Position numbers and translations under genes: made by a program
Assembly: GCA_043785265.1 (NCBI GenBank)
Contig: JAYVXK010001173.1
Coordinates: 1 to 10,005 of the forward strand
Source: Myxococcales bacterium
Lineage (GTDB): Bacteria; Myxococcota_A; Polyangia; Polyangiales; Polyangiaceae
Direction of reading: 5' to 3'
Length of the DNA stretch: 10,005 nt
Notes under the pieces: generated by a model
Databases searched by the model: none
The model's input: only the letters and a program-made list of their open reading frames with translations
What the model was told of the DNA's origin: nothing
In this document: positions 6,159-8,186 of the stretch, in pieces
How the letters are laid out: each line of letters opens with the position of its first letter
How positions within the stretch are numbered: the stretch's first letter is position 1

Positions 6159-8186
6159 TCACGGGGGCTGGCGTCGTTTGTCGCGAGGGACTTCCGTTTC
6201 GGTCGGACGGAGAGCCAACACAGTGCTTACCGTCTGCGATCCGCCGGGACCGATGGGCAGACCCGACAGAAGACGCTCGACGATGGCACCGACGCTCTCG
6301 CCTCCCAGAATCGCGAGTGGCGCGATGTTCTTCGATAGCTCGGCCGCCATCTGCTGACTGCCGAGTGTCTTCAATGTCGCGATGAGCTCCGGAGCGAGAG
6401 CGCTCATCTGCTCCTTGAACGCCACCACTTGAGTCTCGAGGTTCTTGCGCTCGACCTCGGCTTCCTTCTCCATGGCCGCAACCTTCGAGGTCGACGCAAT
6501 CCGAAATGCCTCGGCTTCATTCGCAGCGCGACCGACGTGCTCCAGTTTGTGCAGCTCCGTGCTCAGACTGGTTTGCGCAACCGCGAGCGCGGAGCTCTTG
6601 GCCAACGTCTCGAGCTGCGCCTCGCACACTTGACGATCGACCGACTCCTTCAGCTTTTCAGCGGAGAGGCGCATCTCCTGCTGCCGTCGATTGACCTCGG
6701 AGATGATCGCCGTGCGCTGCGCATCGGAGAGCAGCTTCTTCACGTCTTGATCGAGGATCTTCACGTCGAGGACCTCGACGTCGTAGACCCACATGCCGTT
6801 CTCTTCGAAGTGTCGACCTTCACGCGGCGAGTCGTTGAGTTTGTCGCCGAGGATCGCGCTGCGAAGAAGCTCTGTGCTGCTCTGGTGGAAGACGTCGATC
6901 GGTGTGGCGCGCGCTGCGCCGCGGAGAATCGATCCGAGGTGATCGCACAGCAACCCGACGTAGTTTCGCACGTGGAACCATCGCTCTGGCTCGCCGTTCT
7001 TCGTCACGAACGAGACGCGATACGAGAGCGCGACCTCGAGCTCCACGTGATCTGCCGTTTTTACACGAACGACGTCGGAGACTTTGTTTCCCTCGATCTG
7101 CAGAAAGCAGGTCGGCAGCAGCACCTCGTCTGTCTTTGGCTTGCCGGTCGAGAGTCGCAGGATCTCGAGGTCTTCGTCGTACGCCAGGATGCGCGTCGTT
7201 GGACCGGTGACGACCTCGCGCTTGGCCTTGGCAGTAACCATGATCGCATAGCTCGGTGGGATCGTGATCGACAGCGCATGTCCAGGAGCGCGCTCGCCGA
7301 TCCCGTAGAGAACGGAGCGCTCCTCGTCCACGGAGCGTGTAACGACTTCGACTTGCGTCGGGTCGGGCAGATAGTTGCACGGGCCCGTGATGGTGGTGAT
7401 GCGACCAGAGTCGATCGCACGCACGTAGATCCCCTCTTTTTCTGCGATGGGAATGGCCTCCACGACACCGATGACCTCGAGGCTCTCTGTCGGGAAGAAG
7501 AAGCCCTCTTTGTCCTTCAAGAAAATTTCCTGACCGGATTCGTACGATCCGGCAGGCACCTGATCGCCGTCGGTCGCGACGAACGGTTTGACGACGCGCG
7601 CATGCAGGCCGCCGTTCTTGCGCAAACGCCACGCCGTCCTCACGTAGCCCGCGCTCGTGGGGACGACCTCGAGGCCGGTGCGCGGAATGTAGAAACTGAC
7701 GTCGCAGCCGCGCACGATCATCTCGGTCCCGATGGGTCGGTCGTCGCCTTCGACTGCGTCATACACACGAACGACGAGGTGTTCGTCTTCGCGCAGCTGG
7801 TGACCGCCGATCACCTTGGCCTTCTGCCCAGGCCACAGCGGGAAAGTGGCTGGCCCAGGGACGACGATCTTTCGTCCTGCCAGGAGTTCGACCGAGCCGT
7901 TGCTCCCCTTGAGCGGTCGGACACCGGGATCTCGCGGAGGATTGTCGAGAACGATGTACTGCGCAGACGAAGCCGCGACGAAAGGATTCACGCCCTGACC
8001 TCCCTCTTCGCCGCGCACCGGGACGAAGCGATCGTTTTTGAGATCGACCAGCCGCTCGGTGTTCGACAAGCTGATCTTGGTCGGCCCCACGTAGAGCATG
8101 ATGTCGCCCTTGGTGAGATCCTGCACGTAGGCATACTCGTTGGACGCCACCAAGATGTCTCTCTCTCGGATATCTCTCTCGGTCAT
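6159..8186 (-). CDS. Major vault protein (MVP) homologue, 675 aa. N-terminal vault repeats (~5), then MVP shoulder (SPFH-like) domain, then cap-helix coiled coil, then cap-ring.
   Basis: Hand alignment to vertebrate MVP recalled from memory. [30 protein letters not shown] vs [44 protein letters not shown] vs [26 protein letters not shown] vs [37 protein letters not shown] vs [32 protein letters not shown]...[23 protein letters not shown] vs LSLSAGRPK...[64 protein letters not shown] vs [40 protein letters not shown]. Coiled-coil and cap-ring tail (…[21 protein letters not shown] vs …LFNTAFGLLGMG). Start set at ATG 8186 ([10 protein letters not shown]…), which has GGAG 7 nt upstream; the track ORF extends to 8384 with an Arg-rich non-homologous extension. 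Confidence 0.85.
   Translation of the reverse strand: [675 protein letters not shown]

Follow-up and report, generated by a model that had tools for sequence, protein, structure and literature searches.

The MVP gene and its product

Vaults are among the largest and most abundant particles of eukaryotic cells, and their shell is built from major vault protein (MVP). The window analysed here, a 10,005-nucleotide (nt) stretch of a Myxococcales bacterium genome (contig JAYVXK010001173.1), carries a gene for a bacterial MVP homologue at 6159-8186 on the reverse strand. Its neighbours are a GH35-like glycosidase gene, hemL, and genes for a Coq4-like protein, a TetR regulator and an AmgK-like sugar kinase. 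The gene is an unbroken open reading frame (ORF) of 675 codons with an ATG start, and its 675-amino-acid (aa) product has a mass of 74 kDa and a pI of 5.6. The mechanical ORF reaches further 5′, to a GTG at 8384. The ATG at 8186 is the true start, because 33 homologues share M1 and the ~45 residues after it with little or no variation. An earlier note, made from the sequence alone, had placed a GGAG ribosome-binding site 7 nt from this ATG; the GGAG is present, and direct reading gives a spacing of 8 nt. The 675-aa protein contains no transmembrane segment (maximum Kyte-Doolittle(19) score 1.29) and no amphipathic or transmembrane anchor. The gene, the regions of its product and the elements upstream are as follows.

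6159..8186, reverse strand: complete MVP-family coding sequence including the stop codon, 675 aa (ORF, Pfam, BLASTP, hhalign, Foldseek)
7101..8159, reverse strand: six MVP-type beta-sheet repeats, aa 10-362 (AlphaFold strands, Foldseek, Vault_2/4/3, MAFFT block map)
6750..7097, reverse strand: shoulder with an SPFH-like alpha/beta fold, aa 364-479 (MVP_shoulder; human 518-647; predicted local distance difference test score, pLDDT, ~86-94)
6372..6749, reverse strand: uninterrupted cap helix of 126 residues, aa 480-605 (AlphaFold; alignment to the human cap helix)
6237..6371, reverse strand: cap-ring region, aa 606-650 (hhalign and BLASTP reach human 856-860; family conservation 0.76)
6159..6236, reverse strand: C-terminal tail, aa 651-675, and stop codon (conservation 0.25, pLDDT <40, predicted disordered)
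8195-8198, reverse strand: GGAG, Shine-Dalgarno-like, 8 nt before the ATG (read from the sequence)
8223..8238, reverse strand: predicted sigma-54 (RpoN) -24/-12 element CGGCACATCTAGTGCT, lying 37 nt upstream of the ATG, its -12 C at 38 nt, with a predicted leader of ~26 nt

A 620-aa antisense ORF at 6429-8291 on the forward strand covers nearly the whole MVP gene and seems to be ‘conserved’ in other loci. It was rejected as a gene: it has no family match, and the MVP frame in high-GC DNA accounts for its conservation, so that it is a shadow ORF.

Sequence evidence for MVP membership

The product of 6159-8186 is an MVP-family protein from end to end, with repeats, shoulder, cap helix and cap ring. 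The Pfam model MVP_shoulder (PF11978) matches aa 367-479 with 103.9 bits (E 7e-30) over profile positions 3-118 of 118. Two repeat models exceed their cut-offs, Vault_3 at aa 322-357 (28.9 bits, cut-off 28.8) and Vault_4 at aa 244-269 (25.1 bits, cut-off 22.9), and Vault_2 gives a sub-threshold match at aa 74-122 (E 0.12). When applied to human MVP (Q14764, identical to PDB 11dr_A), the same models mark repeats R2 (Vault_2), R8 (Vault_4) and R9 (Vault_3) and then the shoulder, so the domain order is the same in both proteins. Band_7 (PF01145) has no match to the 675-aa protein at E<=1. No NCBIfam model covers the protein, which explains why members of the family are named ‘hypothetical protein’.

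Comparisons with whole sequences extend this picture over the length of the protein. A phmmer search against all PDB sequences returned MVPs only, with human, rat and rabbit MVP at 8e-30. BLASTP against human MVP gave two collinear pieces, the first joining residues 11-257 to human 8-231 (R1-R4; E 2e-7) and the second joining residues 152-650 to human 296-856 (R6 to the cap ring; E 2e-30, 25% identity). A profile of the family aligned by hhalign with human MVP from residues 131-654 to human 276-860 (probability 99.9%, E 4e-33). The alignment along the whole length asserted in the earlier note is thus confirmed by BLASTP, hhalign, Pfam and Foldseek together, and the PF11978 search that it had proposed succeeded at E 7e-30. 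Its term ‘full-length’ holds for the extent of the match and fails for the repeat complement, which is six of nine. The claim that the protein is not just an SPFH/band-7 protein also stands, since MVP repeats are matched in sequence and structure and Band_7 is absent.

Predicted structure and repeat complement

AlphaFold was run on a single chain with 84 sequences as input (75 bacterial homologues and nine tetrapod MVPs). The resulting model has a pLDDT of 82 and a predicted template modelling score of 0.63; it supersedes an earlier run with 33 close homologues, in which R1 and R5 were of low confidence. Beta-strand repeats are predicted for residues 10-360 (pLDDT ~85-97), followed by an alpha/beta shoulder (367-477), one continuous helix (480-605), short low-confidence helices (613-641) and a disordered tail. 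The cap-ring region, to which these short helices belong, contains conserved motifs including PEL..TLK.LG. Vertebrate MVP likewise ends in a disordered tail (PMC13100048).

A Foldseek search against solved structures placed vault chains in all of the best twelve positions (E 6e-34 to 3e-27), with a TMq of 0.65 to rat vault 4v60_A. The repeat region matched the crystal structure of murine R1-R7 (E 9e-14, TMt 0.60). The SPFH cages (flotillin, HflK/C, erlin, prohibitin and stomatin) appeared from 1.5e-6 on, over 250-360 columns, as against 1e-34 over ~700-800 columns for MVP. Vault chains are therefore far ahead of SPFH cages, and the likeness is not confined to the SPFH-like shoulder. The architecture expected by the earlier note, with N-terminal vault repeats followed by shoulder, cap helix and cap ring, was recovered by both the alignment and the AlphaFold monomer that it had suggested as a check.

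Pairing of the repeats in a MAFFT alignment with tetrapod MVPs gave the following correspondence.

Window residues 6-124: human 3-106 (R1, R2)
Window residues 125-175: human R5
Window residues 184-240: human R7
Window residues 241-302: human R8, without the 20-aa insert
Window residues 303-362: human R9
Window residues 364-479: human shoulder
Window residues 480-605: human cap helix, the window helix being ~22 aa shorter
Window residues 606-650: human cap ring

In this alignment, human 107-214 (R3, R4) and 273-321 (R6) have no counterpart in the window protein, which accordingly has six repeats and not nine. The nine repeats of vertebrate and Dictyostelium MVP were not found; the bacterial protein has six such domains. 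Among 33 close homologues, 14 carry a 46-residue insert after residue 183, exactly at the R6 gap, which gives forms with seven repeats and 715-722 aa. Five also have an insert of 40 residues following residue 299.

Family size and distribution

The bacterial subfamily of which the protein is a member is large and strongly conserved, with its centre in Myxococcota. A word-indexed search of clusters at 90% identity returned at least 766 clusters. In the best 120 of these, the proteins are 54-72% identical to the window protein, measure 650-765 aa and cover the query almost fully; the named members come from Myxococcota (Polyangiales, Haliangium, Labilithrix), Planctomycetota and Acidobacteriota. 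Archangium is also among the genera with proteins at 54-72% identity. When 1.84 billion representatives at 50% identity were scanned exhaustively with HMMER, 1134 matches at E<=1e-3 and 510 clusters at E<=1e-30 were obtained. A pattern-limited scan of one genome per species found at least 56 loci, the best being that of a Polyangiales metagenome-assembled genome (MAG) at 70% identity. The view in the earlier note that bacterial homologues are rare is contradicted by these counts (at least 766 clusters at 90%, 510 at 50% with E<=1e-30, and at least 56 species-level genomes).

Among the HMMER matches listed, most are proteins of 800-950 aa that are 34-40% identical to the window protein. These form a longer bacterial class carrying MVP_shoulder, Vault_3 and Band_7, to which the Joint Genome Institute (JGI) gives the name ‘major vault protein’. 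The class comprises hundreds of clusters and forms a separate, more diverse clade. Together with megaphage MVP-like proteins, these longer homologues (~800-950 aa, 34-40% identity) share MVP_shoulder and Vault_3 with the window protein; they differ in belonging to a separate clade and in having more repeats, a Band_7 match and a lower score against human MVP.

Three megaphage records of 462-735 kb encode an 809-aa MVP homologue. It is found at 3992-6421 of LR756501.1, a 735-kb uncultured megaphage, and also in LR756500.1 and LR756503.1. The phage protein matches MVP_shoulder (1e-28), Vault_3 and Band_7 and shares 31% identity with the window protein across 91% of its length; the tree puts it with the longer bacterial class. 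Its gene adjoins a phage metallopeptidase gene. A 2023 preprint on the ‘first viral MVPs’ covers two gut phages, which are different from LR756500.1, LR756501.1 and LR756503.1 (10.1101/2023.11.10.566534).

Bacterial MVP homologues have been reported before. Daly et al. (2013) described them in Corallococcus, Plesiocystis, Microscilla, Saprospira, Flexibacter and Herpetosiphon, at ~25% identity to the eukaryotic protein, and predicted their folding and docking (PMC3762200, PMC3595041). Sokolskyi (2019) analysed proteins from Myxococcales, Cytophagales and Oscillatoriales in silico (10.1101/872010), and Santos et al. (2023) included Myxococcales MVPs in a tree to which two gut phages were added (10.1101/2023.11.10.566534). 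The reported Myxococcales homologues are those of Corallococcus coralloides (H8MNI3), Plesiocystis pacifica (A6FXM1/A6FXE2), Enhygromyxa salina and Melittangium boletus. By their published description they resemble the window protein, being from the same phylum, ~25% identical to eukaryotic MVP and known by prediction only. To judge by its sequence, the window protein is therefore one more member of an already reported, common family. The papers on Myxococcales homologues contain neither the six-/seven-repeat variation nor a sigma-54 promoter. The literature search found in-silico studies only and no experimental characterisation of bacterial MVP homologues, in agreement with the earlier note, and reviews still term vaults exclusively eukaryotic (PMC9778704, PMC11855390).

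A putative sigma-54 promoter upstream of the MVP gene

The predicted element CGGCACATCTAGTGCT is the only match to GGCAC-N6-TGCW on either strand of the window. It fits 9 of the 11 consensus positions of TGGCAC-N5-TTGCW, and it lies in sense orientation with the canonical GG/GC spacing. The same element was scored in the 200 nt upstream of the orthologue at the 46 loci with enough sequence, with GG and GC obligatory and the nine other positions counted. A score of at least 9 of 11 was reached in sense at 33 of 46 loci and in antisense at 1 of 46; for at least 8 of 11, the counts were 40 of 46 and 4 of 46. In these loci, the background for a score of at least 9 within 200 nt is 1.7%. The six loci that lack the element are exactly those from outside Myxococcota (three Planctomycetota, two Acidobacteriota and one ‘Clostridia’ MAG). 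Because the spacers within the element vary between loci, its recurrence is not simply inherited sequence identity. The strand asymmetry and fixed geometry of the predicted element are hard to explain by chance.

The distance between element and gene falls into two patterns. In 16 of 40 loci, exactly 14 nt separate the -12 C and the start codon. The ATG would then coincide with the predicted transcription start, which suggests a leaderless mRNA made from a sigma-54 promoter; such a combination is unusual. The remaining loci, including the window, have a 31-54-nt leader with a Shine-Dalgarno sequence. The loci with the 14-nt spacing have no Shine-Dalgarno sequence (L005, L009, L016, L017, L024, L025, L029, L032, L036, L041, L046, L048, L050, L051, L052 and L054), and their -12 region sits upstream of the MVP start at about locus position 5960-6003.

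Myxococcota use sigma-54 widely. If the element functions as predicted, the gene would depend on RpoN and an enhancer-binding activator, and its expression would be controlled by a signal. No papers linking myxobacterial MVP homologues to sigma-54 were found in the literature searched; the conserved element predicted upstream of myxobacterial MVP genes is new here.

Proposed assembly of the protein

The explanation favoured here, with a probability of roughly 60%, is that the gene encodes a soluble cytoplasmic protein of the MVP family that is induced by a signal and assembles itself into a shortened vault-like shell. Many copies would stand next to one another, in contact through repeats, shoulder and cap helix, in the manner of MVP and all its solved SPFH relatives. 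This lateral packing would produce a ring-symmetric dome whose top is closed by the cap-ring segment, and a pair of domes, joined at the N-terminal R1, would make up a hollow and closed cage like a vault. With three repeats fewer in each half, the barrel of such a cage would not reach the length of the eukaryotic one. Transcription by RpoN with an enhancer-binding activator would mean that the shell is made on a signal and not constitutively.

Conservation within the protein is consistent with this explanation. R1 is the most conserved domain: invariant positions make up 33 of its 50, whereas the shoulder has 32 of 113 and the cap helix 15 of 126. Seven of its residues (I11, V21, D23, G34, P35, E44 and R45) are invariant across the bacterial proteins and tetrapod MVPs. 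E44 and R45 align with human E41 and R42, and R45 thus corresponds to Arg42 of the published waist contact of rodent MVP (PMC2752026). A single helix of 126 residues is not plausible as a monomer; in vaults, the homologous helix forms the cap barrel.

Other observations weigh against a vault-like shell made on a signal, and they concern its assembly, its repeats and its regulation. Cage formation is inferred from homology. Eukaryotic vaults are assembled on polyribosomes (PMC13100048); self-assembly of the bacterial form is presumed. At the waist, the Asp39-Arg42 salt bridge of rodent MVP is not kept, Asp39 being replaced by an invariant Asn42, and Arg37 and Ile36 are replaced by Leu40 and Ser39 in the bacterial protein. 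Any R1-R1 interface is for this reason not identical to that of the rodent. The cap-ring region was modelled with low confidence (pLDDT 32-51). PF01505, the model of the central repeat (human R3-R6 type) and the other of the Pfam searches proposed earlier, matches human MVP four times and the 675-aa protein not at all at E<=1; the two central repeats (aa 125-240) were recognised by alignment and structure only. Profile comparison among the six repeats was mostly insignificant, with only R3-R4 and R1-R5 reaching ~60-65% probability, and the repeat count consequently rests on the model and the alignment to MVP. As to regulation, the sigma-54 element is a sequence prediction, and the orthologous loci are related rather than independent, so that binomial figures overstate its significance. 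No rpoN or AAA+ activator gene is present in the window, which does not show rpoN in the genome.

The main rival is a half-cage, a single dome capping a membrane patch or another surface without forming a closed, two-halved vault. SPFH cage proteins (HflK/C, flotillin, prohibitin, stomatin, erlin, QmcA) share with the window protein a shoulder-like fold and a long helix that packs into a ring-shaped dome; all of these proteins, to which shoulder and cap helix are homologous, form half-cages (PMC13100048). A subpopulation of eukaryotic vaults also does so in situ, and vaults have been seen bound to membranes through the shoulder (PMC13100048). The absence of the Asp39-Arg42 salt bridge would fit such a form. 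However, SPFH cage proteins possess an N-terminal membrane anchor and lack MVP repeats, whereas the window protein has no transmembrane or amphipathic anchor (maximum hydropathy 1.29), and the N-terminal side of its shoulder, the anchor site in SPFH proteins, is taken by the six repeats. No other domain is as conserved as R1, and some of its invariant residues are common to tetrapod R1, as expected of a retained dimerisation interface. A half-cage is therefore considered unlikely, although it is the most serious competitor of the closed shell.

Still less probable is that the protein forms no cage and serves as an elongated soluble scaffold or filament former that shares ancestry with MVP. This would accord with an assembly that is presumed from homology, with six repeats rather than nine and with the lack of partner genes. 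However, the parts that make lateral and cap contacts are all retained and conserved, proteins from three phyla being 54-72% identical and 32 positions of the shoulder invariant, and every solved protein with the module of shoulder and long helix forms a ring-shaped cage. An ordinary SPFH/band-7 protein of the HflC/stomatin type, whose MVP likeness would come from the shared fold only, is barely credible: JGI names several homologues ‘regulator of protease activity HflC’, and the longer bacterial class and the phage copy also match Band_7, but that identity is ruled out by the absence of Band_7 at E<=1 against 104 bits for MVP_shoulder, by the match of the N-terminal 360 residues to MVP repeats (Vault_3, Vault_4, BLASTP E 2e-7, R1-R7 structure 9e-14) and by a Foldseek gap of ~27 orders of magnitude between vault chains and SPFH cages, the latter aligned over ~250-360 columns.

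Origin of the gene

The MVP gene is resident in its bacterial genome, and recent acquisition from a eukaryote is excluded. Its GC content is 0.614, and its GC content at third codon positions (GC3) is 0.76, compared with 0.69-0.73 in the neighbours. Relative synonymous codon usage correlates at 0.87 with the pooled neighbours, inside the range of the neighbours among themselves (0.77-0.92), as the match in codon usage and GC3 reported from the sequence alone had implied. In a neighbour-joining tree whose eukaryotes were tetrapods only, without protist or cyanobacterial MVPs, the window protein adjoins a homologue from a Polyangiales MAG inside the bacterial clade, and tetrapod MVPs stand on a long separate branch. 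The subfamily has a mean internal identity of 0.64; to the longer bacterial class the mean is 0.36, and to tetrapods it is 0.25. Composition, housekeeping neighbours and the tree together uphold the earlier statement that the gene is not a recent eukaryotic insertion. The phylogeny against eukaryotic MVPs that had been called for settles the matter of recent transfer; the direction of any ancient transfer lies outside its tetrapod-only sampling.

The chance that the gene arrived recently from a eukaryote, or that the assembly contains eukaryotic contamination, is negligible. Such an interpretation has been given for cyanobacterial MVPs with ~54% identity to rat MVP (PMC3762200). The window protein, however, is 25% identical to human MVP and 54-72% identical to bacterial proteins (best 120 of at least 766 clusters), and it nests in the bacterial clade beside the Polyangiales MAG protein. 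Its gene resembles the neighbours in GC, GC3 and codon usage, has no introns, is preceded by a bacterial ribosome-binding site and a putative sigma-54 promoter, and lies among bacterial housekeeping genes such as hemL. Identity, tree, composition and context thus rule out recent eukaryotic transfer.

Scores and published phylogeny bear on the more distant relationship to the eukaryotic protein. With human MVP as the query, the window subfamily scores 97-108 bits, as against 26-87 for the longer bacterial class. In the tree of Santos et al. (2023), Myxococcales emerge near a clade of eukaryotes and cyanobacteria (10.1101/2023.11.10.566534), a placement with which the higher human-MVP scores of the subfamily agree. 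A bolder proposal, doubtful at present, combines this with the assembly discussed above. Myxococcota and some Planctomycetota and Acidobacteriota would build genuine closed vault-like cages from an MVP of six or seven repeats, switched on through sigma-54 and an enhancer-binding protein in a specific programme, for example of development or stress, and this lineage would be the closest prokaryotic relative, possibly the source, of the eukaryotic vault shell. If true, the vault would join the eukaryotic features with myxobacterial affinities.

Comparison with the eukaryotic vault

Eukaryotic MVP (human Q14764/PDB 11dr; rat 4V60, 78-mer vault) has the same domain order as the window protein, including the disordered tail. 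The two are alignable from R1 to the cap ring, and eukaryotic MVP is the best structural match (E 6e-34, TMq 0.65). R1 contains residues invariant in both groups. Besides an identity of 25% and the presence of nine repeats versus six (without counterparts of R3, R4 and R6), the differences from human MVP include an R8 insert shorter by 20 aa, a cap helix shorter by ~22 aa and a waist in which Asp39, Arg37 and Ile36 are not kept. The shell of the bacterial protein is a predicted one, and no vPARP, TEP1 or vault RNA is evident near its gene.

The bacterial protein has several advantages for study. It is large and strongly conserved, is encoded by a single gene without partner genes and occurs in genetically tractable myxobacteria, which would make it a simple model in which to ask about the contents of an MVP shell and the time of its production. 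The present results sharpen the picture in that the family is common and its six- and seven-repeat forms map onto specific eukaryotic repeats. Through the conserved predicted sigma-54 promoter in Myxococcota, regulation offers a concrete way to find the condition that induces the gene.

Neighbourhood and intergenic elements

The MVP gene stands alone, without a conserved partner gene. An all-against-all BLASTP comparison of ORFs from 57 loci found no conserved neighbour, the only recurring ORFs being the MVP gene, antisense shadow ORFs and generic Ser/Thr kinases, and the called-gene contexts of two close homologues are unrelated. Rfam found no family in the 10-kb window, and hence no vault RNA or Y RNA; with the neighbour comparison across the 57 loci, no counterparts of vPARP, TEP1 or vault RNA were seen near the gene. 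PADLOC defence models had no match to the MVP protein or its neighbours. A scan of 5900-8600 for sigma-70 promoters and intrinsic terminators found none. Between the convergent TetR and MVP genes lies one further feature.

6013..6158, no strand assigned: imperfect intergenic palindrome, (GGGGAC)n at 6016-6090 and its approximate complement at 6090-6157

The palindrome has a fold energy of -69 kcal/mol with a z-score of only -1.64, and it has no U-tract terminator. On account of this z-score, it was rejected as a strong terminator; it may be a bidirectional terminator, which is weakly supported, or a dispersed hexamer-repeat element. Arrays of GGGGAC/GGGACG hexamers occur in three intergenic spots, at 3212-3267 (reverse strand), 6016-6157 and 9495-9641 (forward strand). 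The sequence GGGGACGGGGACG with at most two mismatches has 24 matches, against 0.59 expected. The arrays inflate adjacent mechanical ORFs with low-complexity PV/GD/RP translations, and they are possibly a dispersed repeat element of the genome.

The ORF at 4565-5272 (reverse strand) encodes a full-length Coq4 homologue (PF05019, E 4e-43) without an NCBIfam model. Coq4 is best known as a eukaryotic protein of ubiquinone biosynthesis. The gene for this homologue lies within 1 kb of the MVP locus, beyond the TetR gene, and is the second ‘eukaryote-flavoured’ gene there.

The mechanical ORFs at 3070-4575 and 8278-9477, both on the forward strand, are too long at the 5′ end. In the first, the hemL profile begins at residue 76-79, which puts the true start near 3295 (MTAQKS...). 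The profile of the AmgK-like kinase begins near residue 81, so the divergent intergenic region between the MVP and kinase genes is wider than 8187-8277.

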